Below are positions 3,891 to 32,000 of a stretch of DNA of 32,000 nt, piece after piece. This stretch comes from Nostoc sp. PCC 7120 = FACHB-418. Its GTDB lineage: Bacteria; Cyanobacteriota; Cyanobacteriia; Cyanobacteriales; Nostocaceae. The translations under genes were made by a program, and so were the position numbers. The number at the start of each line of letters is the position of its first letter. Position 1 is the stretch's first letter. Below the pieces are notes generated by a model. The model did no database searches. It was not told the origin of the DNA and saw nothing but the letters and a program-made list of their open reading frames with translations. The stretch is taken from assembly GCF_000009705.1 (NCBI RefSeq), contig NC_003276.1:150001-182000 (forward strand). The letters run 5' to 3'.

Positions 3891-4133
3891 TTGGTTGCCA
3901 AACATAGAGACAGAATAACAAGATTCGGCTTGAATTATATTAAGCTTCTGTTATCAGCCACAGGTAAAAGACTAGAGATTGTGAATGATGCTGACAACGG
4001 AAAAGATGAGCTAATGCAGGATTTAGTTTCTGTAATTACCTCATTTGTGCAACGCATTTATGGATTGCGAAGAGCAAAGCGTAAAACGGAGAAAATCATA
4101 GCAGAACTGCATCGCAATGGAGCAGAAGAATGA
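3891..4133 (+). pseudogene. tnpA: IS607-family serine-recombinase TnpA, C-terminal remnant (N-terminal HTH and catalytic Ser region missing)
   Basis: ..KHRDRITRFGLNYIKLLL..IEIVN..DELMQDLVSVITSFVQRIYGLRRAKRKTE matches the C-terminal part of IS607 TnpA. Upstream sequence is AT-rich with stop codons. There is a 4-bp ATGA overlap with tnpB at 4130-4133. Confidence 0.75.
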
Positions 4134-17675: not shown

Positions 17676-18890
17676 ATGTTTAACCTGAATCGTCGTCAGT
17701 TTTTATTGCGGAGTACTCTCGCCATCGCCGCAACTGTTAGTTACGATCATGTACAAGCTCAAAAACCAAAATCCCCTGGGACATTGCCCAAGGGATTACC
17801 ACGTCGAAAGGTGATCGTTGTCGGTGCGGGTATTTCTGGTTTAGTCGCAGCGTATGAATTAACAGCCGTTGGTCATGATGTCACCCTTTTAGAAGCAAGC
17901 AAACGTATAGGTGGTAGAGTGTTAACCCTGCGAGGAGCCTTTCAAGGAGAGGATTTATTAGAACTTGGAGCGGCTAGAATACCATCAAATCATCATTTAA
18001 CCTTTGGTTATATCAAACATTTTGGTTTAAAACTTTCACAATTTGCGCCGGCAGACGGGAAATACCTGACCATCAAAGACGGAAAGCGTCTGTTAATTCC
18101 AGCGAAAGTACTATTTCAAAATCAACCACAAATCCGTCCCCAAGAGATTCAAAAACTGACGGATGGATTTGATTTACTTCCTAAAGCATTTGCCCAAGCA
18201 TTGACAAAAGAAATTAAACTTGATGAGCCTGTTGCTCGGATTGTACAAACCTCTAATGGAGTTGAAGTGTCGTGCTTATCAGGGCAACGATATCTTGGTG
18301 ATTATGTGTTATGCACTGTCCCATTAACCGTTTTAAACCAGATTACTTTCTCACCTGAACTATCTGAGGAAAAAAAACAGGCGGCGGCTGGAGGATATAA
18401 CTATCGAGCAGCAACTCGTGGATTTGTAAAATTTCCTAACCGATTCTGGGAAAGAGAAAACTTAAATGGTTGGGGATTTTTCGACGATGAAGAACTGTGG
18501 CATACTACTTGGGACAGACCTGAAAAAACTGGCATTCTTCATGCTTATCTCAAAGGAGAAAAAGGTCTGGAGATCGATGGCTTTGAAGGGAAAACTCAGC
18601 AGCAAAAATTGCTCCAGCATTGGGAGAAGATTCTGCCTGGGGTAAGTAATTACTCTGTGCGCTCATATTTTCATTCCTGGACAAAAGATATTTGGTCAAA
18701 AGGAGGCTGGGCTTATCCTACAGATGAACAGGAAAAGAAACTATTTCCCGAATTAGGTAAGTCAGAAGGAAAAATTTATTTCGCTGGAGAACATACTTCC
18801 AAAACTAGAGGCTGGCTTCAGGGAGCATTAGAATCTGGACTTAAGGCGGCTCAAGAAATTCACTTTGCTGGCTCTACCGCTCCTCGATAA
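17676..18890 (+). CDS. Flavin amine oxidase / L-amino-acid-oxidase-like FAD protein with a Tat signal
   Basis: The twin-arginine leader is MFNLNRRQFLLRSTLAIAATV (ATG at 17676; the track ORF starts at 17610). The dinucleotide-binding motif is VIVVGAGISGLVAAYEL, and the C-terminal motif FAGEHTS..GW..GALESG is present. Confidence 0.8.
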   Translation: MFNLNRRQFLLRSTLAIAATVSYDHVQAQKPKSPGTLPKGLPRRKVIVVGAGISGLVAAYELTAVGHDVTLLEASKRIGGRVLTLRGAFQGEDLLELGAARIPSNHHLTFGYIKHFGLKLSQFAPADGKYLTIKDGKRLLIPAKVLFQNQPQIRPQEIQKLTDGFDLLPKAFAQALTKEIKLDEPVARIVQTSNGVEVSCLSGQRYLGDYVLCTVPLTVLNQITFSPELSEEKKQAAAGGYNYRAATRGFVKFPNRFWERENLNGWGFFDDEELWHTTWDRPEKTGILHAYLKGEKGLEIDGFEGKTQQQKLLQHWEKILPGVSNYSVRSYFHSWTKDIWSKGGWAYPTDEQEKKLFPELGKSEGKIYFAGEHTSKTRGWLQGALESGLKAAQEIHFAGSTAPR

Positions 18891-19234
18891 AAAGTAAAAA
18901 TTCAGAACCCAGGCGGTCGCCGAGCGCAGTCGAGGTGATTCAGAAGCAATGCTCTAAGCTTGTCGAAGGGTCAGAATTTAGAAGTATTTAGCAAATAGAC
19001 TCATCCGCAAATGGTAAATGCTTCAGTAACTGGGTTGGACGAATTTGGATGTGATAGGCGATCGCCAACCAAGGAACTATCGAGGCCTCTGCTGCTAATA
19101 TTGAATGCGAATTTGAATACAGAATCTTTAACTGAATCAAACTATTTTGACCGAAAAAGCCAATAAATTGATTGTGATCTGAGCTTCGGAAATTCCGACT
19201 CTGCTCCAGAATTAGCAAATAGCTGAATCCTTAT

Positions 19235-19693
19235 TCAAACTTCTCCATTCAGGAGCTTCGTCATTAGAAAACGCTCGTGTTTTTGATAGCCAACTCGATG
19301 ATAAAGGCGTTGGGCGTTTGGGTTTTCAAAATCTACCTCCAGATGAAGGGCTTGAACTCCTAGACTATGGCAAATTTTCTCTGCAAACATCAAAGTCTGC
19401 GTACCAATACCTTGTCCTCGATGCTTTGGACGAATATAAAATTCATCTATAAAAGCATCTCTACCTCGGTATTCTAGGCTGTACCCTAACGTCAAAACAA
19501 TATAGCCAATGACCTCATCCTCTTTCCTAATCAACCATATTTGTCCAAAAGAGTCATTACTCAAAAACTGTATGAGTACATGGCGATCGCTAGTTTTGTC
19601 AAATGGTAACTTTTCGGTTTCATGAAACTCTTCAACTAGTTCCAAAACAAGATTTAGATCGCAAAATGCGGCTTTTTGATAGTTAATATTCAT
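19235..19693 (-). CDS. GNAT-family N-acetyltransferase
   Basis: 152 aa. The acetyl-CoA-binding motif is RPKHRGQGIGTQTL. Confidence 0.85.
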   Translation of the reverse strand: MNINYQKAAFCDLNLVLELVEEFHETEKLPFDKTSDRHVLIQFLSNDSFGQIWLIRKEDEVIGYIVLTLGYSLEYRGRDAFIDEFYIRPKHRGQGIGTQTLMFAEKICHSLGVQALHLEVDFENPNAQRLYHRVGYQKHERFLMTKLLNGEV

Positions 19694-19707
19694 AATATAC
19701 CTTGCGC

Positions 19708-19776
19708 TTAGTTATCCAACAGTCCAAAGCTTAGGATTAATAATTCGCGTTGCATCGGTTTGAGAGGTAGGAGTGT
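19708..19776 (-). pseudogene. Orphan fragment of a group-2 sigma-factor gene (start of region 4)
   Basis: The minus strand reads *TLLPLKPMQRELLILSFGLLDN*. The core 19711-19764 is 51/54 identical to 28956-29009 inside the intact sigma gene. Confidence 0.7.
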
Positions 19777-19858
19777 CTAGCAATAGTGCAGAGGGCTTAA
19801 GCGCGTTACTGATTGTTCAGTTGGCTTGGTTCTCCAAAGCGATTAACCATCAAAACAT

Positions 19859-20698
19859 TCATATTAGGCTTTGATTTTTAGTTTTGACTCTTTGATAAAG
19901 TTCTTCCATTGTTTCTATAAAGGAATTATCTTTGTGCCAGAAAGCTGGGAAGTCTCCTTCCTTTTTAACTAAAATTGCTGAAACTCCGCTATCATTGGCG
20001 ACTTCAATAGTAGATGGTAAACGTTTTGCACCTAACCAAAACTCTCTTAAGTGTGGCTTGTCCGTAACAGTTTGTTTTTCAGGCGTTGTGTAAAAAGATT
20101 GACTCGGTTCAATAGCCCATTCTTGTTCATCTAAAACTGTAGATAGTGCTTTACCTAAAGGTGAATCAGCTAGTTTAGCTTGTAATTCTACTTTGGTAAG
20201 CCCCCTTAATTCAAATAGTAAAAAGGGGTTGCTATCAAGTTGAGAAGCTACTAAATAATAAACTCCAGCTATGTGCTTACAAGGGTTAGCATAATCTGGA
20301 CAAGAACATTTAGTTTTAAAGTCATTGCTACTATGCGGTAATAAGTGTAACCCCATTTGAGAGAATATTTCTTCAATATTTTCAGGAACTTCGTTTAATA
20401 ATAACCGCGAAACAATACTCGCTTTGGAAGAAATATTTTTGATGGCTTCATTCCAACGGGTTTTGGCAATGGGGGTAATTTCAATGACTATATTATATGT
20501 GGGTTCTTTGTAAACTCCAAAATAAGGATTCACTGAACCTCTAACTTTAGCTGTGATGATATTTTTACCAATATCAAAGCTTTTAACTTTACCACCACGA
20601 GCATAGGAGCGTCCTCTTTGTAGGCGACCATCATCGGTAAAATCTTCTAGTGCTTTGATAAAGCGATCGCCCCACCAAGTTCTGCTAAACTTATTCAT
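19859..20698 (-). CDS. SWIM zinc-finger protein
   Basis: 279 aa with the CxCxnCxH motif CSCPDYANPCKH. The start codon lies 5 nt after the SNF2 stop codon. Confidence 0.85.
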   Translation of the reverse strand: MNKFSRTWWGDRFIKALEDFTDDGRLQRGRSYARGGKVKSFDIGKNIITAKVRGSVNPYFGVYKEPTYNIVIEITPIAKTRWNEAIKNISSKASIVSRLLLNEVPENIEEIFSQMGLHLLPHSSNDFKTKCSCPDYANPCKHIAGVYYLVASQLDSNPFLLFELRGLTKVELQAKLADSPLGKALSTVLDEQEWAIEPSQSFYTTPEKQTVTDKPHLREFWLGAKRLPSTIEVANDSGVSAILVKKEGDFPAFWHKDNSFIETMEELYQRVKTKNQSLI

Positions 20699-20703
20699 AA
20701 TAT

Positions 20704-23700
20704 CTACTCCATAATTGTGCTTTTATTCAAGGCAATTAGTTTCTTAAAGGCTTCGTTATCTAATTCGGTTAGCCACGATTCATCACTACCAACTACGGCG
20801 GAAGAAAGTTTTTTCTTATCTTCAATCATTTGGTCGATTCTTTCTTCTAAAGTCCCAAGGGCGACAAATTTATGTACAAACACATTTTTTTTCTGACCTA
20901 TGCGAAAAGCGCGGTCTGTGGCTTGGTCTTCAACGGCTGGATTCCACCAACGGTCAAAATGAAAGACGTGGTTGGCTTTAGTTAAAGTAATCCCCACGCC
21001 GCCAGCTTTTAGGGAAAGGACAAATACAGATGCTTCCGTATCAGGATTTTGAAAGTCACTAATCATTTGTTCCCGACGTTGGCGACTTGTACCCCCATGT
21101 AGGTAGTAGGTATTGCAATGTAAGTTGTGTTTGAGATATTTTTCTATTTGTTCGCAGACTTCTGTAAATTGACTAAATATTAAAAGACTTTCTCCTTCAG
21201 AAATGGCTTCATCTACCATTTCGACTAAGCGGGAAAGTTTGTGCGAGCGCTCCGGTAAAAATTCGCTATTATCTTGGAGGAACTGTCTGGGATGATTGCA
21301 AATCTGTTTTAATTTCATCAGCGTTGAGAGAATTAAACCTTTGCGTTGTATTCCCTCAGCTTCTTGCAATTTTTCTTCCACATCTCTGACTACCACTTCA
21401 TATAGCGAAGCCTGTTCTTTGGTGAGGTTGGTATAGAGTTTTTGTTCAACTTTATCTGGTAAGTCTTTAATAATTGATTGGTCTGTTTTGACCCGTCGTA
21501 AAATTAACGGTTCAACCAGTTTCTTTAAGGTAGTCGATTTTACTTTATCGTTGTCCTTCTGGATGGGAATTTCAAAGGATTTGCGAAACTGTGCTTCTTT
21601 CCCTAAATAACCGGGATTGAGAAAATTAAAAATTGACCACAAATCAAGTAAGCGGTTCTCAACTGGTGTACCAGTTAAAGCTAGACGGTGTTTAGCACTG
21701 AGTTTGAGTATAGCTTTAGTCTGCGCTGCTTTGGGATTTTTAATGTTTTGTGCTTCATCTAAAACTAACCGTTGCCATGTCACACTATTTAGGAGTTTTT
21801 CATCTAAGCGAGCCAAAGTAAAGGAACTTATCACCACATCATGCTGTTGACAGGCGGACTTAAACTCCGCAGCATCTTGCAGGCGATCGCTACCATGATG
21901 CACCATAGTTTTTAAATGGGGTGCAAACTTAGCAATTTCTCTTTGCCAGTTACCAACAACCGAAGTCGGCGCAATTAATAATGTCGGTAATGGGGAACTT
22001 TGGCTATCTTTCTCCTGTACTAATCTCGCAATTACCTGCACGGACTTACCCAGTCCCATATCATCGGCTAAACAGCCATTTAATCCCAATTTTTCTAAAT
22101 ATTGTAACCAGGCTACACCCCGCTTTTGATATTCTCGCAGGTTGCCTTGCAAATTTAAGTCTTCAGAAATTGGCTCTAGCTGACTCTTATCTTGTAACTT
22201 TGCCATTATTTCTGATAAAGCTGCATCATATTCAATTTCCCAGTCATCTTCCCCTTGGGCGCTGCGTTGCATGAACTCTAACAAGCTCATTTGGGGCTGT
22301 TCATCGCCGTGGGACTGCCAAAATTCTAATAACTGCTGCATTTTATCCCGGTCTAATTCCATCCATTGACCGCGAAAATGCACTAGTGGTGCTTTAGTAT
22401 TAATCAATTGTTCCCATTCTTGAGGTGTGAGAGTTTGCTCTCCAATTGCTAATTCATACTGATACTGCACTAGTGAATCTAAACCGAAATAACTTTTGCT
22501 TTCCCCTACCGTAGCAGCTACCTTGCGACCACTAGAAGCTTTGAGGCGGATTTTCGCACGACGACGACCAGCCGGAGTATACCAAGCCGGGACAATGACC
22601 TTAAATCCTGAGTCTTCCAACACCCAAGCACTATCTTTGAGAAAATCAAACGCCTCATCTAAACTTAGCTGCATTCCTGTGGGAGAGTCCGTTTCTAAAC
22701 CTTGCCAAAGTTTGGGATACATTCTTGCTGCATAGCCTAAATTCAGCAGTAAATTAGTATCGAAATCTTTGCCAAACTCTTTATGTACACCAGCTTTGGT
22801 TTTGGAATTCATTATCCAGTAATCTGCCAAAGCTAATTTTAGAGACGGATCTTTTTTACTTGATACTAAAAATTGCATCTGCCAATTGTCAATTTGTTCA
22901 GCATCAGGTGAATGTAATTGGAAGCAAAGATGAAATGGTGATTCAGCTTGAGTACGGATAATCCTGTTTTTCCATCCCAACCACTGCTGATACTCTTGGA
23001 GAGCAGTATGGGTTTTGAGTGGGTTGTGTTTTTGGGGATAAAGACAATAGTGAATTAAAGAATCATCAATTTGTTTTTCAAATGCTGCGGTCAATGGTGT
23101 CTTACTCACTAAATTATTAAGCAGATACTCGCTGAAGTGGCGTAATAGAGTTTCTGGAGCAAAAAATTCTAATTTATCAGTTTGTGTGCTGTTACCTGCT
23201 ACACAAATCAATGGCATATATTCAATATATTTTTGAATATTGGCTTCGTATTGCTCGGAAATTATTTCCCAACCAGCATATATTTCAAATCCTGGGGGTG
23301 GTTGTTTAGGTTTTTTCTTTGTAGTCGCTGCGTTCGCTCTATATTTTAAAGATGGAATATATTGATCCTTAGTAATTATTTGTCTAAATGATTGCGTATA
23401 ATGATACCAAAATAATAAATCTGACCCTAATTGAAATTCACTAGCATTGTACAGGGCTAAAAAATGAATATCTTTGAGTAATTTAATAATATTAATTGCT
23501 ATCACTGCTTTCACAGAAGTAACAGTTTCATAACAAGTTACCTGCCAATATTGAAAATTTTCATACTCTTCAGGAACTTCTACTTCTAAATATTTGACTA
23601 ACTCTGGTGAAGGTAATGGCTCATTATTAGCAGTTGGTAGGGCAAAATATTTAGAACATATCCGTTGTTTTAATTGCGCTTCAGTTTCTTTAATCCCCAA

Positions 23701-23871
23701 AGTTTGAGTCAGAAAATTGAGTAATTCAAGAGAAGATAGATGTCCGGGATGAACTTGTGTATGAGTACGCTTTTTGTTATTAATCGGAGTTTCTACCCAT
23801 AGATAAAATGCTCCAGACTGCACAAAATCGCTATATTGGTTTGGTATCCACGAGCCATGAAGGACTTTCAT
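20704..23871 (-). CDS. SNF2-family helicase/ATPase with a long N-terminal SNF2-associated region
   Basis: 1055 aa. Motif I is LADDMGLGKS, motif II is DEAQNIKN and motif III is LTGTPVENRL. The helicase-C motifs are SLKAGGVGITLT and DRWWNPAVEDQATDRAFRIGQ. Confidence 0.9.
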   Translation of the reverse strand: MKVLHGSWIPNQYSDFVQSGAFYLWVETPINNKKRTHTQVHPGHLSSLELLNFLTQTLGIKETEAQLKQRICSKYFALPTANNEPLPSPELVKYLEVEVPEEYENFQYWQVTCYETVTSVKAVIAINIIKLLKDIHFLALYNASEFQLGSDLLFWYHYTQSFRQIITKDQYIPSLKYRANAATTKKKPKQPPPGFEIYAGWEIISEQYEANIQKYIEYMPLICVAGNSTQTDKLEFFAPETLLRHFSEYLLNNLVSKTPLTAAFEKQIDDSLIHYCLYPQKHNPLKTHTALQEYQQWLGWKNRIIRTQAESPFHLCFQLHSPDAEQIDNWQMQFLVSSKKDPSLKLALADYWIMNSKTKAGVHKEFGKDFDTNLLLNLGYAARMYPKLWQGLETDSPTGMQLSLDEAFDFLKDSAWVLEDSGFKVIVPAWYTPAGRRRAKIRLKASSGRKVAATVGESKSYFGLDSLVQYQYELAIGEQTLTPQEWEQLINTKAPLVHFRGQWMELDRDKMQQLLEFWQSHGDEQPQMSLLEFMQRSAQGEDDWEIEYDAALSEIMAKLQDKSQLEPISEDLNLQGNLREYQKRGVAWLQYLEKLGLNGCLADDMGLGKSVQVIARLVQEKDSQSSPLPTLLIAPTSVVGNWQREIAKFAPHLKTMVHHGSDRLQDAAEFKSACQQHDVVISSFTLARLDEKLLNSVTWQRLVLDEAQNIKNPKAAQTKAILKLSAKHRLALTGTPVENRLLDLWSIFNFLNPGYLGKEAQFRKSFEIPIQKDNDKVKSTTLKKLVEPLILRRVKTDQSIIKDLPDKVEQKLYTNLTKEQASLYEVVVRDVEEKLQEAEGIQRKGLILSTLMKLKQICNHPRQFLQDNSEFLPERSHKLSRLVEMVDEAISEGESLLIFSQFTEVCEQIEKYLKHNLHCNTYYLHGGTSRQRREQMISDFQNPDTEASVFVLSLKAGGVGITLTKANHVFHFDRWWNPAVEDQATDRAFRIGQKKNVFVHKFVALGTLEERIDQMIEDKKKLSSAVVGSDESWLTELDNEAFKKLIALNKSTIME

Positions 23872-24022
23872 CAGAACCTCCGTTGAGTCCTACCTTTGAA
23901 ACAAGAGTGCCAGAATGGCGTTTCCAAAAAAGGTGACGTTTGTTGATTACTTTACCAAAAACCGTGTTCTGTGCTGCTAAAGTTAGGAAGTTTTTTACAT
24001 ATAGACTAGTTTTTGACTGCTA

Positions 24023-24667
24023 TCAAGGCTCAACAGTATTCCTTAATCGCTTTTTAAGATCGCGGACGGCAGCACTTGAGTTACGTTCGTAAGCAATCTG
24101 CACACAACGAACTATGGTTTGTGCTAAATCAAAGTTAGGAAAATAACAACTATGAGTTTGCAGTTGGTAATTTTCACCTTGTAGTTGATGAATTAGTAAC
24201 TGCTGATTTCTGAATAACCAAACTTCTCTTACACGATAGGGCAGATAGTCTTGCACATCAGAATAACTGGTGACATCAATTTCGATAACTAAATCAGGTG
24301 GTGGGTCTTGTCCCCAGTCGATGCGTTTTTTCCCTGAGACTGCCTGCCAATTATCAATATAAAAGCAGTAATCTGGCTCAATGCCGCTTTCTTGGGGTAA
24401 GCTCATGGTTACAGGTGTAAACGCATCATATTCTCGCTCATCGTGATCTAATAAAGCCATCACAATGTTAGCCAGTAAATGAGCATCTCGACCGTGTACT
24501 GGTAATGGCGACATCAGCAATACTTCTCCATCACGGTATTTTATACGCGGTATTGACCCATCTCCTCGTTGACTGCATAAATGCTGATATTCTTGCCAAC
24601 TGGCAGGCAAACGTACTACAGCACCAGGAGGTAATTCAGTTTTGTCTGGAGAAACAAGAGCAAACAT
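24023..24667 (-). CDS. Uma2/DUF820-family PD-(D/E)xK endonuclease
   Basis: 214 aa. The motifs W..Y..L......RI.Y..GE..LMSP...H, then EPDYCFY, then PPDLVIEIDVTS are typical of the Uma2 proteins that are abundant in cyanobacteria. Confidence 0.8.
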   Translation of the reverse strand: MFALVSPDKTELPPGAVVRLPASWQEYQHLCSQRGDGSIPRIKYRDGEVLLMSPLPVHGRDAHLLANIVMALLDHDEREYDAFTPVTMSLPQESGIEPDYCFYIDNWQAVSGKKRIDWGQDPPPDLVIEIDVTSYSDVQDYLPYRVREVWLFRNQQLLIHQLQGENYQLQTHSCYFPNFDLAQTIVRCVQIAYERNSSAAVRDLKKRLRNTVEP

Positions 24668-24961
24668 GACTTATTTCCTATTACTGCTTCATACTGCAAT
24701 CTTAACAAGGATTTTCCCAACCACCTTTGTGATCGCAGATGGCAGACTTTTGTGGGCAACTGTTTTGGCTGCTTTGCGAGGTTACAGTTGGTGAAAAGAC
24801 AAACGAGCGATCGCCCTTGGCTTCACTCCGCCTAACTGTGCGGCTTGCTGGTGTCGCACACTTTACTCTCTAGTCCTGAAACATTGTAGTTTGCAATACC
24901 CCTTCAATCGGGTACTGGCATTGATACATGAGCAGAGTATTTCTCTGGTATTCTCTGGTAT

Positions 24962-25477
24962 TCACCTACTCCCGCAAGGAGTAGGTGAAGTTGACTCTGC
25001 TCTAGTTGCCCTGGAGGGTACAGAGATAGAAGTAAAAGAAATACCTCGACTACCAAGGACTAAAGTAGCTATCGCCTTCGCTCTGGGCATATGAAATTTG
25101 GAAGTGATTAAGAATATGTGCTTTATATGCTGTTGTTGGAAATCCTCTACCAAGCTTGTAAAATTAGTCACTGTGTCTGTAGCACGGTAATCAAGATGAA
25201 ACTGACTATCTGTGATACCTGCGGCATGAAAAATTGCTCGTGCTTGTTGCGGCTCAATCCCAGATGAAACCCAAATTTTTATATCTGGATAAAATTGGGC
25301 AAATAGAGCCGTAAATTCTTCTTTGTCTGCACCACCACCGAGAGTAAGAATAGCTTGAGGTTGAGGAGCTTGATGATTAGCAATTGCCAAGCGTACAGGA
25401 ATAGTTAGCCCTAAAACGAGGAGCAAACCCACTAGCCACAACATCAATATAGTTTTAATTCGATATGAAGACTTCAT
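24962..25477 (-). CDS. DUF218 (YdcF/ElyC/SanA-like) domain protein
   Basis: An N-terminal membrane anchor is followed by ILTLGGG... and ..DYRATDTVTNF......HI.LITS.FHMPRA. The likely start is the ATG at 25477 (the track ORF starts at 25504). Confidence 0.65.
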   Translation of the reverse strand: MKSSYRIKTILMLWLVGLLLVLGLTIPVRLAIANHQAPQPQAILTLGGGADKEEFTALFAQFYPDIKIWVSSGIEPQQARAIFHAAGITDSQFHLDYRATDTVTNFTSLVEDFQQQHIKHIFLITSKFHMPRAKAIATLVLGSRGISFTSISVPSRATRAESTSPTPCGSR

Positions 25478-25700
25478 AACTCTTTCACGGTAGGCACTTT
25501 CCACTTTACAGAGAACTGAGATTACCAGCAGCCCAGTGACTCAGTTGCTCTGTTGTTCTGGGGCAGAATAACCAGCGATTGCCTTAACTTGGGAGATAGG
25601 TGCAAAGGAGATTTGACTTAATTGCTAAAAAGACTAGCATAATTAGACGACTCATCATTTTGGTGATGCACTACAATTCATAGTTGCTTTTGAGGAGCAA

Positions 25701-25760
25701 GAGCCGCAGATGTTTGGGTAGCCGGTGGCTGTGACACTCTATTGGGTGCAGTAGATTTGG
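25701..25760 (+). repeat. Degenerate third copy of the 61-bp repeat that flanks the TA cassette
   Basis: GAGCCGCAGATGTTTGGGTAGCCGGTGGCTGTGACACTCTATTGGGTGCAG... aligns without gaps to 6360-6419 at 42/60 by my manual count. Confidence 0.6.
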
Positions 25761-25811
25761 TAAATTGTTTGAATTTGGTAGTTAAAACTTTAATCAAAAG
25801 GTTTTTTAATG

Positions 25812-26285
25812 TTAACTTCGCTCTACTATATAGCGCCTAAACAGTACTCCCTGACGATTTACAATTTCAGTATCGTAGATGTGGAAACCAAACTTTTGAA
25901 ATAAACCTAAGCTAAATTCACTCGCTTCGGCATATAAACGCCTAATCTTATGCAGATGAGCATATTCTAAAATTTTCTCCATGAGGATAGAACCAATCCC
26001 TTGACGGATAAGATCGCTCCTAACATAAGTAGCAGTTACATGACCATCTTCTGTAATTCCTGCAAACCCTAAAATTCCCCTTTCATCTGTAGCTATAAAT
26101 GTAGTGGCGTTCAAAATGAACTTTTGAAAATTATCTGTATCTGATGCAAAAGATGCCCACATTTGCGTTTGCTCTGGAGAGTAGTGCTGCGGTGCAACTG
26201 CCAACACTGTTGTTTGATAAAGTTCTGCCAATGCTGGAACATCCAATTCTTCAGCAATGCGAATATTCACATTCATCACTTTCAT
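25812..26285 (-). CDS. GNAT-family N-acetyltransferase
   Basis: 157 aa. The acetyl-CoA-binding motif is IRQGIGSILMEKIL. Confidence 0.85.
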   Translation of the reverse strand: MKVMNVNIRIAEELDVPALAELYQTTVLAVAPQHYSPEQTQMWASFASDTDNFQKFILNATTFIATDERGILGFAGITEDGHVTATYVRSDLIRQGIGSILMEKILEYAHLHKIRRLYAEASEFSLGLFQKFGFHIYDTEIVNRQGVLFRRYIVERS

Positions 26286-26399
26286 GGCGACTCCATTTTT
26301 TCAATACTTTAGAAGACGCTTTCTTTACGCATCACAACTCGTAATGCTATTTTTTAGAACCAACATTTTTCAGTATTGCTGATTTCTCTAGCTTCATCT

Positions 26400-26669
26400 T
26401 TATTTGGGAAATGACATGATGCTATCTTCATAATTTTCAAAATTACTAATCCAAAACTTAAATTCTTTATCTATCTCATCTACGACTTTGTATTGGGCAG
26501 CATTTTTCATAGTAAAATCAGTAATCAAGGCATAGTATTTCCCTTCTTGTTTAAATTTTACTTTTATACTATTTCTATTATTAGTCAGTCTAGACGCTGC
26601 TGATTTTAAGCTATTTAAATTATCTTCATTTGGTGGACTTGACACTACAATTTTAAATTGTACTTTCAT
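26400..26669 (-). CDS. Hypothetical 89-aa protein, translationally coupled to the upstream IS-disrupted gene
   Basis: Its ATG overlaps the stop codon of the upstream gene (TAATG at 26667-26671). The gene is AT-rich and I recognise no motif. Confidence 0.5.
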   Translation of the reverse strand: MKVQFKIVVSSPPNEDNLNSLKSAASRLTNNRNSIKVKFKQEGKYYALITDFTMKNAAQYKVVDEIDKEFKFWISNFENYEDSIMSFPK

Positions 26670-26943
26670 TATTCTAAATATATGGCTGAACTTTGAAATG
26701 CCTCTTCTGGTGTTCCATAAAAAGTACCATTATTAAATACACTAGGCTCGTATTTTTCATTGCTGTATGTGTAAAAAGCTTTTGTCCACTTTTCCTCATT
26801 GCCTTTGTAACGCAATCGACAAAGGTGAATTGGAGTATTCCTGGCTCTTTCTAAATATTCTTCAAGCGTTACTTTAAATAATGACGGGTCATAATTATCT
26901 GGAATGAATGGCTCTTTGTACGCATCTATGTAACAGAAATATC
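26669..26943 (-). pseudogene. C-terminal part of a small IS-disrupted gene (DUF3024-like by recollection)
   Basis: It reads (GYF)CYIDAYKEPFIPDNYDPSLFKVTLEEYLERARNTPIHLCRLRYKGNEEKWTKAFYTYSNEKYEPSVFNNGTFYGTPEEAFQSSAIYLE*. After the IS and one target-duplication copy are removed, it continues in frame from 28621..28770. Confidence 0.7.
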
Positions 26944-26961
26944 CTAGCGTGGCAAAACTTA

Positions 26962-27708
26962 CTAGAGAAGACGACTCTCTAGATTAGCCAAGTAAGCCTT
27001 GGGGTCTCTGCGAAATCGATACTGTTCAATTCTGGCTTTGTGGTGTTTTTGCAATTGAGAGCGTAATTCGAGCCAAGTATGAATATCAACTTGTGCTAAA
27101 TCAGATGCGGTAAAAGAATGAAGCTTAGTAGCTATCGCACAGGCAAGTTTGACAGAACCACGAATAACGAGAGATGAGGGGGCAACCTTACGACCGGTAC
27201 AACGACGTTGATGATAACGTAGCATACCAAAAGCGTGTTCTAAGTCATTATTAGTTCTAGGAAAATCTTCAATTTCATAACAATGAAAAAGTCCAGACCA
27301 GTAGCTGTGGGTGGTTTTTATAAAGTTATCGATTGCAGTGTTCAGGGTACCAGCTTTCTGCTTTTGTTGAGACATTTCTGTCAACAGTTGCTGATAACTT
27401 TGTTTGACCCCAGCAGCATCAAGACCTATTTTATTGTTGAGAATATTACTAGCTTTATCAACCCACTGATATGCAACCCTCACAGGTGAAAATAAAGATG
27501 CAGTAGCAGATAATCCCTTAGCTAGAAGGTGTTTTAGGTTAACTAAAGGTGGTGGTAAAGCACTTCTTTTTTCCATCCTTTCTAAGCTTTGTTCTATCAA
27601 AGTCAAATTTTCTTGTAACTTTAATCCAGATGCCTCTAACGGTGGATGTCCATCATTGGTTATAGAACTACGGACTGCCGAGCAATAATCTTCAATAATA
27701 GTCACCAA
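26962..27708 (-). CDS. Transposase, C-terminal part (frame stays open upstream to the A10 tract)
   Basis: This frame continues upstream as ..KKKVRGLREIERSVTNEDKDLVTIIEDYCS.. It is offset by +1 from the N-terminal part at the A10 run (plus-strand T10, 27760-27769). Confidence 0.7.
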   Translation of the reverse strand: MVTIIEDYCSAVRSSITNDGHPPLEASGLKLQENLTLIEQSLERMEKRSALPPPLVNLKHLLAKGLSATASLFSPVRVAYQWVDKASNILNNKIGLDAAGVKQSYQQLLTEMSQQKQKAGTLNTAIDNFIKTTHSYWSGLFHCYEIEDFPRTNNDLEHAFGMLRYHQRRCTGRKVAPSSLVIRGSVKLACAIATKLHSFTASDLAQVDIHTWLELRSQLQKHHKARIEQYRFRRDPKAYLANLESRLL

Positions 27709-27754
27709 ATCCTTATCTTCATTGGTAACACTACGTTCAATTTCTCGTAATCCT

Positions 27755-28543
27755 CTAACTTTTTTTTTTCAATTCCTTTTTTGCATTTCTATCCGCCTCA
27801 TATATGGGTTTAATTGCTTCTTTCAGGTAATGGTAATGACATAAACCATGAGCAATTTTAGGTAATGCTAACCCAACAGCTTTACGAATTGATTGTTGTC
27901 CATCACTAACAACTCCATCAATTGGTACATCCAGTGTATTAGCCACTTCTAATAATAACGCTACTAAATCTTCATTCCTTGATGATAATAAAGTTTTAGC
28001 AAGTAAAATTTCTCCTGATAGACAATCTCGAATTACCCATAATACCTCATGTCCAATTTCTGGCTGCATCCCATCAATGGCTAATATCACCCGTCCTTGA
28101 TTAGCCACTATTGCTTTTAATCTTTTATGGTCTTTTAGCCATAAAGAAAGTAACTCGTCATATCTGTCAATTAAGTGTGTGACCGTTCGTTTACTTATAC
28201 ATATACCTTTTAATTCAAGGTGAGTATGTATTTGAGGAACACTTCTATGTTCCTGGTAGCGTAATGCTCCTATATAAGCAATCACATCCAAACCAAATTC
28301 GTTCTGTGGTAGAGCGAGTGACCCTTCTTGCTCTGGTCGATATGCTTTTTTATACCGCATACATGACTTATTTTGACATCGCCGAATTTTTAGCTGTAGT
28401 TCTACTACCCCATTTAGCGTTCTTATATGTCGAGGATTATTGTATTCATTCCACATTGCTTGACCACACGAAGGGCATTTTTTTTGAACACAATCGAGTA
28501 CTTCAAACGATGTTGCTTCTGGTTTTAAACTTTTTCTTACCAA
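27755..28543 (-). CDS. Transposase, N-terminal part (zinc finger plus the start of the DDE domain)
   Basis: CPSCGQ...RRCQNKSC, ILAIDGMQPEIGHEVLWVIRD, GVVSDGQQS and LCHYHYLKEA resemble the IS66-type D...D...CwAH layout. The ORF ends KKELKKKS* inside the A10 run. Confidence 0.75.
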   Translation of the reverse strand: MVRKSLKPEATSFEVLDCVQKKCPSCGQAMWNEYNNPRHIRTLNGVVELQLKIRRCQNKSCMRYKKAYRPEQEGSLALPQNEFGLDVIAYIGALRYQEHRSVPQIHTHLELKGICISKRTVTHLIDRYDELLSLWLKDHKRLKAIVANQGRVILAIDGMQPEIGHEVLWVIRDCLSGEILLAKTLLSSRNEDLVALLLEVANTLDVPIDGVVSDGQQSIRKAVGLALPKIAHGLCHYHYLKEAIKPIYEADRNAKKELKKKS

Positions 28544-28620
28544 GTTTTTGTACCATTATTTCGTTACAAGCTCAAGATTACAGGATCTCTGCTCCTCTCT
28601 AGTAAGTTTTGCCACGCTAG

Positions 28621-28770
28621 GAAATATCCCTTAAACCTTACATCAATACGTATATATTTTCCTGAATAATGCTGTTCAGCATAAGCTAATATTCGTTGTT
28701 TCGTTCTTTGCTTGACGTTATCAGGAATCTTAACTCCTCCCGAATGTGGATCATTGACCCATGTTCTCAT
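28621..28770 (-). pseudogene. N-terminal part of the IS-disrupted small gene
   Basis: It reads MRTWVNDPHSGGVKIPDNVKQRTKQRILAYAEQHYSGKYIRIDVRFKGYF and then the frame runs into the IS inverted repeat. Confidence 0.7.
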
Positions 28771-28823
28771 GACTAACTCCCTACTTGTCTAAAATTTATC
28801 CCTTCTGGCTCCTGAATTCTGAC

Positions 28824-29774
28824 TCAAGAAGTTAGATACTGCCCAATCGATGGCTGTTGACGACGCAGAGCAGTCATTGCTTTTTGCTGGATTTGGCGCA
28901 CTCGCTCTCGGCTGAGATTTAGCTTTTCACCAATTTGGGCTAAACTTTGCTCTTGGTTATCCAACAGTCCAAAACGTAGGATTAATACTTCGCGTTGCAT
29001 CGGTTTGAGTGATGCTAACAAATCACTTAAGTCTTGGCGCAACATTTCGTGAGTAATGTTTTCGTCTGGCGAAACGCCCTCAGAGGCTAAAAGTTCGCTT
29101 AGTTCTGTTTCTTTGTTATCCCCTATTTTCAAATCTAAAGAAATTGTCCCACTGGCAACCTTGAGGTATTCTCTAATTTGGCTAGGTTCTAACTCCAATT
29201 TTTGGGCAATTTCTGCCACAGTAGCACGACGACCCAAGGTTTGAAAAAATTCGCGCTGTACCTTTTTGATTTGATTGAGTTTTTCGTTAACGTGAATCGG
29301 TAGCCTGACTGTGCGAGATTTTTCGGCGATCGCCCTGGTGATTGCTTGCGTTACCCACCAATATGCGTAGGTTGACAGCTTGTAACCTCGGTTGGGGTCA
29401 AACTTTTCTATTCCCCTTTGCAACCCGATTGCTCCCTCTTGAACCAAATCTAAGAACTCTAAGTTACGGCGCTGATATTTTTTGGCGATAGAAACTACCA
29501 GCCTCAAATTTGCGGTGATCATCTTTTGCTTGGCTCGTTGACCAAGCTCAAGTATTTGATTGACTTGGGCTTCAGTTTTATTGAGGAAATTAGCTAATTC
29601 TAACGTTGTTGGTTCTCGCTCCAGTTTTTGAGTAAGTTCATGCTGTTGCTCTTGGAGGGCAATCATTTGCTGTACAAGCCTGGCATAAGTTATTTCTTGG
29701 TCAGAGGTTAACAAAGGGAACTGACCAATCTCTTGCAAATAGATGCGTACCAAATCCGAACTCAGGCTAGGCAT
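28824..29774 (-). CDS. Group-2 (RpoD/SigA-like) sigma-70-family RNA polymerase sigma factor
   Basis: 316 aa. Region 2 is DLVQEGAIGLQRGIEKFDPNRGYKLSTYAYWWVTQAI, region 3 is present, and region 4 is LKPMQREVLILRFGL...SLAQIGEKLNLSRERVRQIQQKAM. Confidence 0.9.
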   Translation of the reverse strand: MPSLSSDLVRIYLQEIGQFPLLTSDQEITYARLVQQMIALQEQQHELTQKLEREPTTLELANFLNKTEAQVNQILELGQRAKQKMITANLRLVVSIAKKYQRRNLEFLDLVQEGAIGLQRGIEKFDPNRGYKLSTYAYWWVTQAITRAIAEKSRTVRLPIHVNEKLNQIKKVQREFFQTLGRRATVAEIAQKLELEPSQIREYLKVASGTISLDLKIGDNKETELSELLASEGVSPDENITHEMLRQDLSDLLASLKPMQREVLILRFGLLDNQEQSLAQIGEKLNLSRERVRQIQQKAMTALRRQQPSIGQYLTS

Positions 29775-30073
29775 ACAAATATAGAACTGCTACACAACCA
29801 GGGCGAACTTAAAAGTATAAATCAACTAGCTCCATTAACAATACCAACCGAGGAATGCAATTTTGTACTTCGGTTTTCCCCACCTTATATCCCGCCACTA
29901 ATTTGGAGTACCAAATTCAGTGGGGGACGAGGGCGTAATAGTTAAATTTGATAACAAGCGCTCATCATAAGCATTAACGATACTAATGTTATTATTCTTA
30001 ATATTTATTCATATATTGTTAGGATTAGGCTAAATAGCAATCTAAATAAAGGTTGCAAGGAAAGTAACGCCTC

Positions 30074-30262
30074 ATGCTCAAGCAAGGTATTTCACTGGCA
30101 GAAGCCGCAAAACGTTTAGGCGTAAGTCAGAGCGATTTGTATGTGGCTGTACAGAAAGGACAAATTCCTACCTTTAGAACCGATAGAAGAACTGTTGTTC
30201 TTCCTGGAGCTTTAAAAGATTATCAAGTTAGGCGAAGTTTGACTGGTGACTACAAGCTTTAA
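30074..30262 (+). CDS. Small helix-turn-helix (excisionase/MerR-like) DNA-binding protein
   Basis: 62 aa. The motif ISLAEAAKRLGVSQSDLYVAVQKGQIP resembles excisionase-family HTH domains. Confidence 0.5.
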   Translation: MLKQGISLAEAAKRLGVSQSDLYVAVQKGQIPTFRTDRRTVVLPGALKDYQVRRSLTGDYKL

Positions 30263-30283
30263 GTAGCAAAATTGCTTATGTTT

Positions 30284-30493
30284 CTACTTCCCTAGAGAAG
30301 AAAGTAACTTAACATCCCAAGTATAAACACCTTTTTCCCCTGGCACTCTGGAGAATATCCCTGTGCGATTTTCTCCCGTTAACCTGACGGTATAACGGGA
30401 GAGAACGTCACTTCCAGCCAGAATGGTATGGAGCTTACTTTGATTGCCATCAGTTTCTATTGTGACTTTCTCTTGTAAGAATTGTGTGAGCAA
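30284..30493 (-). CDS. Hypothetical 69-aa ORF (TTG start, no clear RBS)
   Basis: Open frame only. Confidence 0.25.
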   Translation of the reverse strand: MLTQFLQEKVTIETDGNQSKLHTILAGSDVLSRYTVRLTGENRTGIFSRVPGEKGVYTWDVKLLSSLGK

Positions 30494-30523
30494 ATAAAAT
30501 AATAAAATAGCTATTCATATCTA

Positions 30524-30553
30524 AACTACGGCTCTATTCCTTCATCAATCCAA
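30524..30553 (+). repeat. 30-bp perfect direct repeat, copy 2
   Basis: Identical to 14736-14765. It forms the last 8 codons plus the stop codon of the 55-aa ORF. Confidence 0.95.
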
Positions 30554-30693
30554 GTATCAATTGCTGTTTTTACGTTTAATTCAGTCACGGCACACCATTC
30601 TTTTTCGTTGATAGTTGTTTTAAATACCGCTCTTTTACCGTGACCAACTTTTTCTATTGAGTGTCCACGATACAAATTTTTAGACTTAATCAT
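30526..30693 (-). CDS. Hypothetical 55-aa ORF (not in the supplied track)
   Basis: My manual translation gives MIKSKNLYRGHSIEKVGHGKRAVFKTTINEKEWCAVTELNVKTAIDTWIDEGIEP*, starting at the ATG at 30693. Confidence 0.35.
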   Translation of the reverse strand: MIKSKNLYRGHSIEKVGHGKRAVFKTTINEKEWCAVTELNVKTAIDTWIDEGIEP

Positions 30694-30822
30694 TTTTCTT
30701 AATCATCTTTAGAGAATGGTCTGCTGAATAATTCTTGGGGTTATGCTTTTGGTAGTACGTTATTTTTGGGTTGGGTATTAGCTTCTGCTTTTCCCTTATC
30801 AAGTTAGTTCCTCTGATACAAA

Positions 30823-31263
30823 CTATATTAATGCAACATACTCACCTTGAAATTTGGCAGCACAAATACCACTTGATGTAATCTCTGCATCTAAAATAAT
30901 TCTTCCCTTCCCTTTTTCATCTAAATTAGTCACAAAACTGCTCCAGCTATCTTCAACTGGAGCTATGCAATGAGCTTGAAAATCTCCTTGGAGTGGTTGG
31001 AAATAATCGACAGTATTTCTTCTGATCACAATGCGACTATTAATGAATAATTCTTGAAGTCTTACATATACTAAAGTCCAGGCTGATAAAATTGCTAAAT
31101 TTGATATACTGCCACCAAATACTGTGCCGTGATGATTAATATTTGGTAATAACGGAGCAGCTAAGATTACTCCTTTTTCGTCAATAGATACTACTGACAC
31201 TGCCATTTGTTGCGAAATCGGTATATTCTGATGGAGATATTGTTCTACTTGTAAACTATTCAT
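30823..31263 (-). CDS. Hotdog-fold thioesterase (YiiD C-terminal-domain-like)
   Basis: 146 aa. The pattern ..YLH..IP.S..M.V.V......GV.L.APL.PNINHHGTVFGGS.S.LAILSAW.LVY.RL fits the YiiD_C/PaaI-like pattern as I recall it. Confidence 0.65.
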   Translation of the reverse strand: MNSLQVEQYLHQNIPISQQMAVSVVSIDEKGVILAAPLLPNINHHGTVFGGSISNLAILSAWTLVYVRLQELFINSRIVIRRNTVDYFQPLQGDFQAHCIAPVEDSWSSFVTNLDEKGKGRIILDAEITSSGICAAKFQGEYVALI

Positions 31264-31373
31264 GGTAATTTTTTATCTCCACTAATTATCAAGATTTTCT
31301 GAAGGTTAGCATTTTCCTAAAATTTACTATGTTTGAGATAAAAAATTAGTTGTATAAGGCTTTTGTGTCCAAA

Positions 31374-31721
31374 CTATCTGGGGCATGGACGTTCTTTATC
31401 TGTTCCTAAAAAATCTGCCCATTCACGCACACGCTCATGTGCTAATCCTGCGCCTGTCCTACCGTATGCTTCCAGAGCTTGACGACTTTTCTCAACCATT
31501 TGGGCTTGGGTGAGTGGTTGGAAATTTAATGTTGTATCTATTTCACCGTAATCATCAATTTCTTCTATACTTTGAGTAGATTCATGACTGAGTAACTGCT
31601 CAAAATCTTCTAAGTCTCCATCAGTTACACTCAACCATGTTTTGAGCAGACTTTTTACCTGCTCTCCTGGCAATACCTCAAGATGCTCTAAAATTTGCTG
31701 TTTAATATTGTTGATTGTCAT
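31374..31721 (-). CDS. Hypothetical acidic 115-aa protein
   Basis: Open frame with plausible coding composition. I recognise no motif. Confidence 0.45.
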   Translation of the reverse strand: MTINNIKQQILEHLEVLPGEQVKSLLKTWLSVTDGDLEDFEQLLSHESTQSIEEIDDYGEIDTTLNFQPLTQAQMVEKSRQALEAYGRTGAGLAHERVREWADFLGTDKERPCPR

Positions 31722-31930
31722 AGGTATTCGATTTCTAGCACGATTTCATTAAAATTCAATGTTTCACCAACATATCTAATTTTAACTTATTGGCATTGCT
31801 GATGGTGAGCCAAGCCTGAAACGCATAGCTGGGGCAGTGGCTCCTTTGGGTTGATTTTGCTTCGGGGTGTATCTCTGTAGTCTGTGATTGGCTCAAAGCG
31901 TTATAGCTCGTTAACTATAGGAAATAAATC

Positions 31931-32000
31931 ATGTCAAAAAGATTGTTATTACTCAGTAATTCCACAAATATCGGTGAAGAATACTTATTTTATGCTCGTC
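31931..32000 (+). CDS. pepE: Dipeptidase E (peptidase S51), N-terminal fragment (3' end lies outside the window)
   Basis: MSKRLLLLSNSTNIGEEYLFYAR matches the characteristic LLLLSNST start of PepE-type proteins. Confidence 0.55.
   Translation, partial: MSKRLLLLSNSTNIGEEYLFYAR

Follow-up and report, generated by a model that had tools for sequence, protein, structure and literature searches.

Islands, ICEs and prophages that occupy the 3′ end of a tRNA or protein gene restore that gene with an attP copy of its end. The locus described here shares with them direct repeats of a gene 3′ end, one in an intact gene and one as a distal orphan, as well as empty sites in relatives and, in Nostoc NIES-3756, a duplicated segment that reaches the gene end. 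However, it has no integrase/excisionase pair, its repeats are as divergent as independent alleles, and the functional gene end appears native. In addition, the cargo is not coherent, only one end is conserved, and the orphan was cut further by a microhomology deletion. The developmentally excised nifD, fdxN and hupL elements of heterocystous cyanobacteria, which use XisA, XisF and XisC, respectively, interrupt a coding sequence, encode a recombinase of their own and are bounded by short repeats (5-16 bp). The present locus resembles these elements in its Nostocales host and in having DNA bounded by gene-associated direct repeats, but the gene concerned, which encodes a sigma factor, is intact, no recombinase is present, and the repeat consists of a pseudogene fragment of 62 nt. 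Another precedent is Campbell-type homologous integration, or cointegrate formation followed by deletion, in mosaic plasmids, which gives a gene, inserted DNA and a partial direct copy. This route needs no dedicated recombinase, and explains divergent copies (from two parental alleles), variable truncation and mosaic cargo. Unlike plain Campbell-type integration, the present locus would require a separate illegitimate event for a joint at codon 256 of the sigma gene.

The sigma gene lies in a 32,000-nt stretch of DNA that was analysed as a whole and is called the window. It is a member of the plasmid SigB-type group 2 sigma factors of Anabaena PCC 7120 (SigB, SigB3 and SigB4; the "Bp" cluster), with which it shares a length of 316 aa, regions 1.2 to 4 and a replicon of ~408 kb (PMC2779892, PMC2758279). 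The protein is identical to BAB78263.1, and the exact protein was found on replicons of 391-409 kb. The gene is probably SigB4/All7179 (as named in PMC2779892) of the PCC 7120 alpha plasmid; no sigB4 expression was detectable under the conditions tested in that study. Neither PMC2779892 nor PMC2758279 mentions the orphan fragment and adjoining indel of the sigma gene, and nothing relevant was found in the literature on known alpha-plasmid rearrangements. A small HTH_17 gene (excisionase-type fold; 30074-30262) is located upstream of the sigma gene, outside the repeats. The features of the locus are as follows.

19235-19693, minus strand: GNAT acetyltransferase (GNAT1; Pfam), native downstream neighbour of the sigma gene in related plasmids
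19694-19706, minus strand: junction at which the orphan meets the -10 region upstream of GNAT1; deletion joint at AAAG microhomology
19703-19764, minus strand: orphan sigma fragment (pseudogene), codons 256 to ~276
19765-19858, minus strand: spacer X, separating the orphan from the stop codon of SWIM and related only to DNA at the same position in the NIES-3756 plasmid
19859-20698, minus strand: SWIM protein (Pfam), part of the conserved module 19859-24667
20704-23871, minus strand: SNF2/DUF3670 helicase (Pfam), part of the same module
24023-24667, minus strand: Uma2 (Pfam), part of the same module
24708-26669, minus strand: sigma-proximal cargo with no NIES-3756 partner (DUF218, GNAT2, hyp89)
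24962-25504, minus strand: DUF218, in the sigma-proximal cargo
25812-26285, minus strand: GNAT2, in the sigma-proximal cargo
26400-26669, minus strand: hyp89, in the sigma-proximal cargo
26944-28620, minus strand: IS of 1677 bp, whose terminal inverted repeats (26 nt) lie inside the 41-nt arms of a repeat pair
28824-29774, minus strand: intact 316-aa group-2 (SigB-type, plasmid-borne) sigma-70 gene (ORF; Pfam regions 1.2, 2, 3 and 4)
28948-29009, minus strand: right copy of the repeat, within region 4 of the intact sigma gene (codons 256 to ~276; 28956-29009 in the preliminary description)

The preliminary description of this DNA reported two copies of a 54-mer, the right one inside the intact sigma gene and the left one an orphan. 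Indeed, 19711-19764 and 28956-29009 have the same orientation and are identical at 51 of 54 positions (three mismatches), and the right copy falls within the 316-aa ORF that carries the four Pfam regions. The 54-mer of 28956-29009 matched only 19711-19764 elsewhere in the window, and had no match in 100 dinucleotide-preserving shuffles. A repeat search of the window extended the pair to 69 nt (62/69 identical; 19696-19764 and 28941-29009). Because the final ~8-10 nt of the extended repeat (19694-19703) correspond to the GNAT upstream region of Trichormus variabilis, the sigma-derived part is ~62 nt long (19703-19764). The left copy translates as LKPMQRELLILSFGLLDN followed by a stop codon, and direct reading of the sequence revealed an in-frame TAG 15 nt upstream. 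Four changes are unique to the window orphan (CAA to TAA and three others), and all of them are non-synonymous, being missense or nonsense. The 54-mer occurred twice in L095-L097, which cover ~40 kb of this replicon, and twice in a 38-kb part of the NIES-3756 plasmid; in PLSDB it was found solely within sigma genes. The segment 19703-19764 is to be annotated as a sigma pseudogene fragment.

The empty site that had been predicted was found in plasmid A of T. variabilis ATCC 29413, in which the sigma gene (90% identical to the window) is followed after 131 bp by GNAT1 (96.5%). Therefore, the 9.2-kb block represents an insertion/deletion polymorphism. Adjacency of sigma and GNAT also occurs in loci L055 and L057; in L055, L057 and L061, GNAT1 comes after sigma or a remnant of it. 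For the NIES-3756 case, Nostoc MS1 pNSMS102 provides the empty site, in which sigma-(GST remnant)-helicase is collinear with the orphan and flank of NIES-3756. Among the matches listed, the exact GNAT1 protein had SWIM upstream in 10 of 10 places and the exact sigma protein stood directly before GNAT1 in none of five; no excised variant was seen among these places. The earlier reading of an acquired block thus stands in so far as 9.2 kb are extra relative to the empty site, with the orphan at the far edge. The integrating element that it invoked is not supported.

The gene content proposed for the block (SWIM, SNF2, Uma2, DUF218, GNAT and an IS-split gene) agreed with our annotation, the SNF2 protein also containing DUF3670. 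Uma2, SNF2 and SWIM form the conserved module that carries the orphan. The closest relatives of its SNF2-SWIM pair are chromosomal (85.5-88.8% nucleotide identity), and the window and NIES pairs show 77% identity to other plasmid copies. The closest SWIM homologues (P0003 and P0005-P0009) are chromosomal, with RecR or PIN downstream, or are located on short contigs; since homology ends at the SWIM stop codon, they give no view of the former attachment of spacer X. PADLOC detected no complete defence system: SNF2 matched just the generic helicase core of the DpdE, ZorD and DrmD models, and Uma2 matched the candidate model PDC-S17. In the sigma-proximal cargo, two short intergenic pieces (24708-24802 and 25568-25678) are common to NIES-3756. 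The IS is flanked by an 8-bp target duplication (GATATTTC; 26936-26943 and 28621-28628) and splits a 138-aa gene, hyp138, into 28564-28770 and 26671-26943. The unsplit gene is present in L039 and in a plasmid of Nostoc UHCC 0870. The IS transposase showed weak MULE/IS66-like matches only. The hyp138-hyp89 pair is 95% identical to a pair in the UHCC 0870 plasmid, where no sigma gene is nearby. In related replicons, the flanking modules occur independently of one another, and the cargo is a mosaic of independently distributed modules.

No integrase had been noticed in the block, and Pfam scans of all block ORFs and the remaining larger window ORFs, a few of them relying on precomputed Pfam calls, identified no tyrosine or serine recombinase in block or window. 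The sole mobility enzymes among the window ORFs were IS transposases. The homologous 20-kb block of NIES-3756 is annotated with NRPS, hydrolase, YkvA, Uma2, SNF2 and SWIM genes, and no recombinase is annotated there.

Plasmid pNOS3756_1 of Nostoc NIES-3756 has the same junction as the window, namely SWIM, the 94-nt spacer X and sigma codon 256, with the spacer and the junction at identical position. Therefore, the joint is older than the split between the two. The joint shows no repeat structure, and a metagenome scan for spacer X (ACGCGCTTAAGCCCTCTGC) yielded one unrelated chance match only. Over 5118 nt, the module shares 94.5% identity with its counterpart in pNOS3756_1, and only 5.1 kb (Uma2-SNF2-SWIM, spacer and orphan) are common to both occupied sites. 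The sigma-proximal ends differ, with hyp138::IS in the window versus an Rpn-like remnant and NRPS genes in NIES-3756, where this side is the flank type found beside sigma in other genomes (L001, L003 and L005). The same joint between X and codon 256 precedes two different native downstream flanks, GNAT1 and GST-helicase.

The NIES orphan runs from codon 256 to the stop codon, 20.2 kb downstream of the intact sigma gene and in the same orientation, and the homologous segment continues to ~9 nt beyond the stop. The two NIES repeat copies differ at 16 of 186 sites, mostly by synonymous changes (pS 0.22, pN/pS 0.23), like alleles of different strains. This divergence indicates that they were not duplicated at integration. 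All known alleles, the neighbouring one included, are equally distant from the NIES orphan (91.4-92.1%). The pN/pS of the orphan, 0.15-0.23, matches that of intact-versus-intact pairs, so that it represents a separate allele that was once functional. After the window orphan there is a secondary microhomology deletion instead of the native gene end: relative to T. variabilis, ~240 bp (the remainder of sigma and the 131-bp spacer) are absent at 19694-19706, where the GNAT1-side joint aligns as ...TCTAAAGGTATATTATG in T. variabilis versus ...GCGCAAGGTATATTATG in the window.

The 3′ end of the window sigma gene is closest to that of T. variabilis (176/186) and the NIES end is closest to that of MS1 (175/186), whereas the two intact ends agree at only 169 of 186 sites; these comparisons cover 54-186 nt with few informative sites, which gene conversion between copies could blur. 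The allele least similar to the window orphan is that of T. variabilis (47/54), although the adjoining GNAT1 is 96.5% T. variabilis-like. From this small number of informative sites, the functional 3′ ends look native rather than imported.

Taken together, we consider, with a probability of about 65%, that the left copy is a recombination scar. It would be what is left of a second sigma allele, truncated twice, no longer functional and physically joined to the Uma2-SNF2-SWIM module. The remnant of a decayed second sigma copy, which the preliminary description had put forward as the alternative that would refute it, is thus closest to the data. The locus contains a truncated homologous fragment with disabling changes, illegitimate junctions and independently distributed flanking modules. 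In the proposed history, an illegitimate joint would have fused spacer X, downstream of SWIM, to sigma codon 256, giving the junction common to both plasmids. This fusion was presumably a single event before the PCC 7120-type and NIES-3756 plasmids diverged. The module and the sigma remnant would then have come to lie downstream of a resident intact sigma gene, in the same orientation and with other DNA between. The likely route is general recombination between related mosaic Nostocales megaplasmids, all carrying this sigma gene. It could have been a cointegrate or Campbell-type crossover in sigma with subsequent loss of redundant DNA, or the occupied allele could have been transferred by way of homology in the flanking sigma sequence. 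In the window lineage, as the alignment shows, a ~240-bp deletion at the AAAG microhomology took away what remained of the sigma fragment along with the spacer before GNAT1. The remnant afterwards gained one nonsense and three missense changes, and the sigma-proximal cargo was remodelled independently, IS insertion included. No dedicated integrase is involved in this history. The block is probably no longer self-mobile and probably never was; at most, the two repeats of today could support a rare RecA-dependent loss of the block. Three points speak against a scar. The NIES segment, from codon 256 to ~9 nt past the stop codon, would resemble an evolved attP mimic; one joint before two native flanks would also be expected from repeated integration of one element; and a recombinase elsewhere in the genome may act in trans.

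Truncated sigma fragments are common in Nostocales. Other break points are codon 232 (L061) and codons 1-148 (L057), and fragments of residues 1 to ~113-131 occur in 17 loci (L063-L079). In most loci, the DNA past sigma diverges from the stop codon onward. The Nostoc HK-01 plasmid, too, has SNF2-SWIM next to a sigma gene of this family. N. parmelioides was considered as a third occupied site and rejected: its fragment with GNAT1 (L061), which shares 99.7% identity with plasmid A of T. variabilis, breaks off at codon 232 beside a PLP enzyme, and linkage cannot be shown because the fragment and the intact sigma gene are on different contigs.

The strongest competitor, which we nevertheless regard as unlikely, is decay in place with no insertion. 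Ancestral tandem sigma paralogues would have flanked SNF2-SWIM, the distal copy would have lost its 5′ part, and the "empty" plasmids of T. variabilis (A) and MS1 would be derived, having lost the DNA in between through recombination of the two copies. Such an arrangement exists in Nostoc HK-01 plasmid1, with the order SNF2-SWIM, two small genes, a 316-aa sigma gene on the same strand, ParA/ParB and another sigma gene, and several other plasmids have SNF2-SWIM within ~2-10 kb of a sigma gene. The divergence of the NIES copies fits old paralogues as well as alleles, and dispensable plasmid sigma genes often decay; for sigB4, as noted above, no expression was detectable under the conditions tested (PMC2779892). 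However, sigma-GNAT1 or sigma-MGMT adjacency in more distant relatives (L055, with 78% sigma identity, L057, L019 and L023) makes the empty state look ancestral. All flank types carry the same upstream gene, hyp47x, and thus behave like alleles of a single locus rather than paralogues. The SNF2-SWIM pairs of the window and NIES-3756 share 86-89% identity with chromosomal copies but 77% with the other plasmid copies, a pattern that speaks for later capture.

We hold it improbable that Uma2-SNF2-SWIM with the sigma 3′ fragment is an integrase-less, homology-guided cargo cassette in which the fragment is a portable landing pad. If true, the cassette and linked DNA would insert by RecA-dependent Campbell recombination beside the conserved sigma gene of any related Nostocales megaplasmid, which would explain the same joint before two different native flanks.

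Slightly less probable still is a discrete element with its integrase lost or acting in trans, whose attP would mimic sigma from codon 256 to the stop. It would integrate site-specifically into the sigma 3′ part, leaving an element-borne functional end and an orphan that is the displaced native end, much as the preliminary description had it with its replacement end. Direct repeats do bracket the block, the empty sites are real, the segment duplicated in NIES-3756 corresponds exactly to codon 256 to just beyond the stop, and one joint with two native flanks is compatible with such an element, as is an HTH_17 gene upstream of sigma. However, that gene is outside the repeats, and no integrase was found in the window, the block or the NIES block. 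Nor does a recombinase family recur downstream of sigma orthologues: the 99 ORFs located there hit 161 families, and the 25 most frequent of these include no recombinase. The two occupied plasmids have intact 3′ ends that are closer to those of their empty-site partners (176 and 175/186) than to each other (169/186), and the window orphan is the least T. variabilis-like despite its GNAT1 neighbour. The NIES repeats, with a pS of 0.22 and a signature of purifying selection, have the divergence of alleles. The sigma-proximal end (Y) is not conserved, its NIES version being the flank of L001, L003 and L005. With one conserved end only (5.1 kb common) and an orphan that then underwent microhomology deletion, integration with a replacement end is disfavoured.

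The remaining candidates were rejected. A composite transposon or IS-mobilised block does not fit a single internal IS with its own 8-bp duplication and no IS ends at 19764 or 28824. Tandem duplication of hyp138-sigma, prompted by the 138-aa gene upstream of sigma in L039, leaves only ~11 nt of weak similarity past the sigma stop, and is contradicted by the hyp138-hyp89 pair found elsewhere without sigma. A heterocyst-type, Xis-dependent excision element is inconsistent with an uninterrupted sigma ORF and the lack of a recombinase of the XisA, XisC or XisF type. A tRNA-type attachment site or structured RNA at the junction was dismissed, as Rfam (gathering threshold) and tRNA/tmRNA scans of the window and the junction gave no relevant match; promoter/terminator scans of the same DNA gave none either.

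The probable recombination scar at this sigma gene reveals no new type of mobile element and no new function. The genes between sigma and GNAT1 are variable cargo of mixed origin, including a SNF2-SWIM pair whose closest relatives are chromosomal. An att-site-like footprint can arise without an integrase. The occupied and empty alleles document the exchange of blocks in Nostocales megaplasmids at a conserved plasmid sigma gene, probably sigB4.

A 54-nt sequence at 28956-29009 recurs just once elsewhere in the window, at 19711-19764; the two copies share their orientation and differ at three positions, where chance would give no match. Ungapped extension of the pair (19696-19764 versus 28941-29009) yields 62 of 69 identities. 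Both the repeat pair and the gene content between the copies agree with the preliminary description. The right copy lies within an intact sigma-70 gene (hereafter sigma). The left copy, a sigma fragment (the orphan) beside a GNAT gene (GNAT1, 19235-19693), reads LKPMQRELLILSFGLLDN and then a stop; 15 nt upstream of it is an in-frame TAG. The features are as follows.

28824-29774, minus strand: intact sigma-70 gene, 316 aa, with regions 1.2, 2, 3 and 4; contains the right repeat copy
Block between sigma and GNAT1, from sigma downward: IS-split 138-aa gene (hyp138), hyp89, GNAT2 (a second GNAT gene), DUF218, Uma2, SNF2/DUF3670, SWIM
26944-28620: IS of 1677 bp, splitting the 138-aa gene (of unknown function), with 8-bp target duplication GATATTTC at 26936-26943 and 28621-28628
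19765-19858: spacer X, between the SWIM stop codon and the orphan
19703-19764: sigma-derived part of the orphan

The sigma protein corresponds to BAB78263.1, named as plasmid-borne in Anabaena sp. FACHB-709, and window 18824-32000 is 100% identical to CP183818.1, a replicon of 408,621 bp. We infer that the replicon is the PCC 7120-lineage alpha plasmid and the gene sigB4/all7179, which belongs to a set of three SigB-type sigma factors encoded on plasmids (PMC2779892; PMC2758279). Between the same plasmid pairs, sigma is consistently more diverged (~89-91% nucleotide identity) than its neighbours (GNAT1, 96.5%; helicase, 95.5%; SNF2-SWIM, 94.5%), with pS of 0.17-0.33 in its 3′ part; the gene is either fast-evolving or often exchanged. 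Divergent from it is a 62-aa HTH_17 gene of MerR/excisionase type (30074-30262, plus strand) with no integrase partner nearby, which takes the place of a 205-aa gene in Trichormus variabilis and N. parmelioides.

The empty site anticipated in the preliminary description, with sigma directly followed by the GNAT gene at 19235-19693, was found in plasmid A of T. variabilis ATCC 29413. There, 131 bp separate sigma (90.4% identity to its window counterpart) from the GNAT1 orthologue (96.5%) downstream of it, and the upstream context is partly common to both plasmids (window 30283-30369). More distant loci (L055, L057, L019, L023) have sigma adjacent to GNAT1, or to MGMT without GNAT1. Compared with the sigma-GNAT1 arrangement, the window has about 9.2 kb of additional DNA, which bears out the proposal that the block is acquired cargo. 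Alternatively, an ancestral tandem pair of paralogues may have decayed in place and the empty plasmids may derive from it by deletion, a reading supported by the SNF2-SWIM/sigma neighbourhood in a Nostoc HK-01 plasmid. However, the empty arrangement is widely distributed and the upstream gene is shared, and we regard this history as unlikely.

A second occupied site is present in pNOS3756_1 of Nostoc sp. NIES-3756, where the Uma2-SNF2-SWIM module is 94.5% identical to that of the window over 5118 nt. The same 94-nt spacer X follows SWIM and meets sigma at the same nucleotide, in codon 256. The NIES-3756 orphan extends to the stop codon (186 nt in total). Upstream of it, beyond a 20.2-kb stretch that holds three NRPS genes, a hydrolase and YkvA, is an intact sigma with the same orientation. 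The matching empty site is pNSMS102 of Nostoc MS1 (hyp47x, sigma, a GST remnant and a 1405-aa helicase), whose sigma 3′ end and downstream DNA are collinear with the NIES-3756 orphan and its downstream DNA. By this comparison, the order sigma, variable cargo, Uma2-SNF2-SWIM, X, sigma fragment and native flank occurs twice, with an identical joint on the X side and different sigma-proximal cargo and downstream flanks. The orphan predates the window plasmid and is not confined to it. Sigma 3′ fragments in NIES-3756 (L100 29735-29920, record 219734-219919) and N. parmelioides (L061 10037-10258) keep a region-4-only open frame of 58-73 aa with an internal ATG (pN/pS ~0.2 in NIES-3756), encoding a putative peptide.

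The NIES-3756 orphan is no closer to the sigma beside it than to any other allele (91.4-92.1% identity throughout). Its divergence is chiefly synonymous (pN/pS 0.15-0.23, versus 0.03-0.26 among intact genes), with a pS of 0.22 to its own sigma. It therefore descends from a separate, once-functional allele rather than having arisen by duplication during integration. The window orphan shows its lowest similarity to T. variabilis (47/54), although the adjoining GNAT1 has 96.5% identity to the T. variabilis gene. It carries four changes of its own, every one missense or nonsense, which is the pattern of dead sequence.

At the edge facing GNAT1, the T. variabilis sequence (...TCTAAAGGTATATTATG), the sigma sequence (...GAGCAAAGTTTAG) and the window sequence (...GCGCAAGGTATATTATG) were compared. 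The remnant is therefore fused to the GNAT1 -10 region at an AAAG microhomology. About 240 bp, comprising the remaining sigma and the spacer, are missing at this joint; the right edge is thus a secondary microhomology deletion.

We consider it probable (about 0.65) that the orphan derives by truncation from a second sigma allele, that it travels with the module, and that general recombination set it downstream of the resident sigma. Such recombination would have occurred between related mosaic megaplasmids with the sigma gene as shared homology. On this account, illegitimate deletions formed the joint between X and codon 256 and, later, the one at GNAT1, and the cross-over could have been a cointegrate followed by deletion, a Campbell-type circle insertion, or transfer of an occupied allele via flanking homology. 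It is rather doubtful that the sigma fragment serves the module as a portable homology landing pad.

The preliminary description had proposed an element integrated into the 3′ part of sigma with a replacement end, and the structure resembles the attL/attR footprint left by islands with gene 3′ ends as targets. The window, however, fails the tests for such islands on recombinase, repeat identity and unit coherence, the comparison of 3′ ends tends, on a small number of informative sites, to speak for a native functional end, and the proposed mechanism is not supported. No tyrosine or serine recombinase was found in the block or the rest of the window (only IS200/IS605, TnpB, ISL3 and the block IS), none is annotated in the NIES-3756 block, and recombinase families are absent from the 25 most frequent of 161 families (99 ORFs ≤6 kb downstream of sigma orthologues, 36 loci). 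Import of the end predicts similar intact 3′ ends in the two occupied plasmids; they share only 169/186 positions, and each is nearest to its empty-site partner (window-T. variabilis, 176/186; NIES-3756-MS1, 175/186). The sigma-proximal junction is unconserved, as NIES-3756 DNA past the sigma stop matches an Rpn/YhgA-like flank beside sigma in three other loci (L001, L003, L005). We consider a genuine integrative element carrying an attP mimic very unlikely. A composite transposon is ruled out by the single internal IS with its own duplication, and a heterocyst-type excision element by the uninterrupted sigma and the lack of a Xis recombinase.

The cargo of the block is a mosaic. The nearest relatives of SNF2-SWIM (85.5-88.8% nucleotide identity, versus only ~77% for other plasmid copies) are chromosomal and sit in a conserved gene order, WD40-hyp129-SNF2-SWIM-RecR. 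A hyp138-hyp89 pair with 95% identity occurs on a plasmid of Nostoc UHCC 0870, where no sigma is close by, and locus L039 carries the 138-aa gene on the upstream side of sigma.

The block IS appears to have been recently active in laboratory or strain lineages, because its adjoining DNA differs among sister replicons: CP183474.1 lacks window 25470-26943, a gap exactly abutting the IS end, L098 and L088 run into other DNA at either end of the IS, and a further difference, in AP018217.1, covers 25296-28641. Intergenic window sequences 24708-24802 and 25568-25678 are conserved in NIES-3756 (L081 13129-13223, 13767-13859 and 14875-14984), with different genes between them (DUF218 in the window versus hydrolase and YkvA). 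In NIES-3756, the ~95-nt intergenic sequence flanks YkvA on both sides as a direct repeat; it may mark the edge of a cassette or represent a small repeat element. Outside the block, the window has a dense IS load (406-2126, 4130-5356, 8772-9995 and 11193-12482) comprising an IS200/IS605 pair (Y1 TnpA and TnpB), two more TnpB/OrfB and an ISL3 transposase. Adjacent minus-strand ORFs at 10246-10536 and 10608-10973 correspond to the C- and N-terminal halves of a Bax1-I family protein, probably one gene broken by a frameshift or stop.

Sigma fragments that break elsewhere in the gene are common. The N. parmelioides fragment (L061), 99.7% identical to T. variabilis plasmid A, breaks at codon 232, and that of Mojavia (L057) comprises residues 1-148. 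An N-terminal sigma pseudogene is conserved in at least eight Nostoc/Komarekiella genomes (L063, L065, L067, L070, L071, L072, L074, L075; e.g. L067 10001-10353). A stop at codon 26 is followed by a frame shift, and the pseudogene breaks off near residue 113-118; identical defects in all carriers indicate an old, widely inherited sigma scar. In most loci, DNA downstream of sigma orthologues differs from the stop codon onward. The window feature fits a known class, the recombination scars and partial gene duplications found at the borders of indels in mosaic plasmids, and adds an instance from the plasmid of a model organism.
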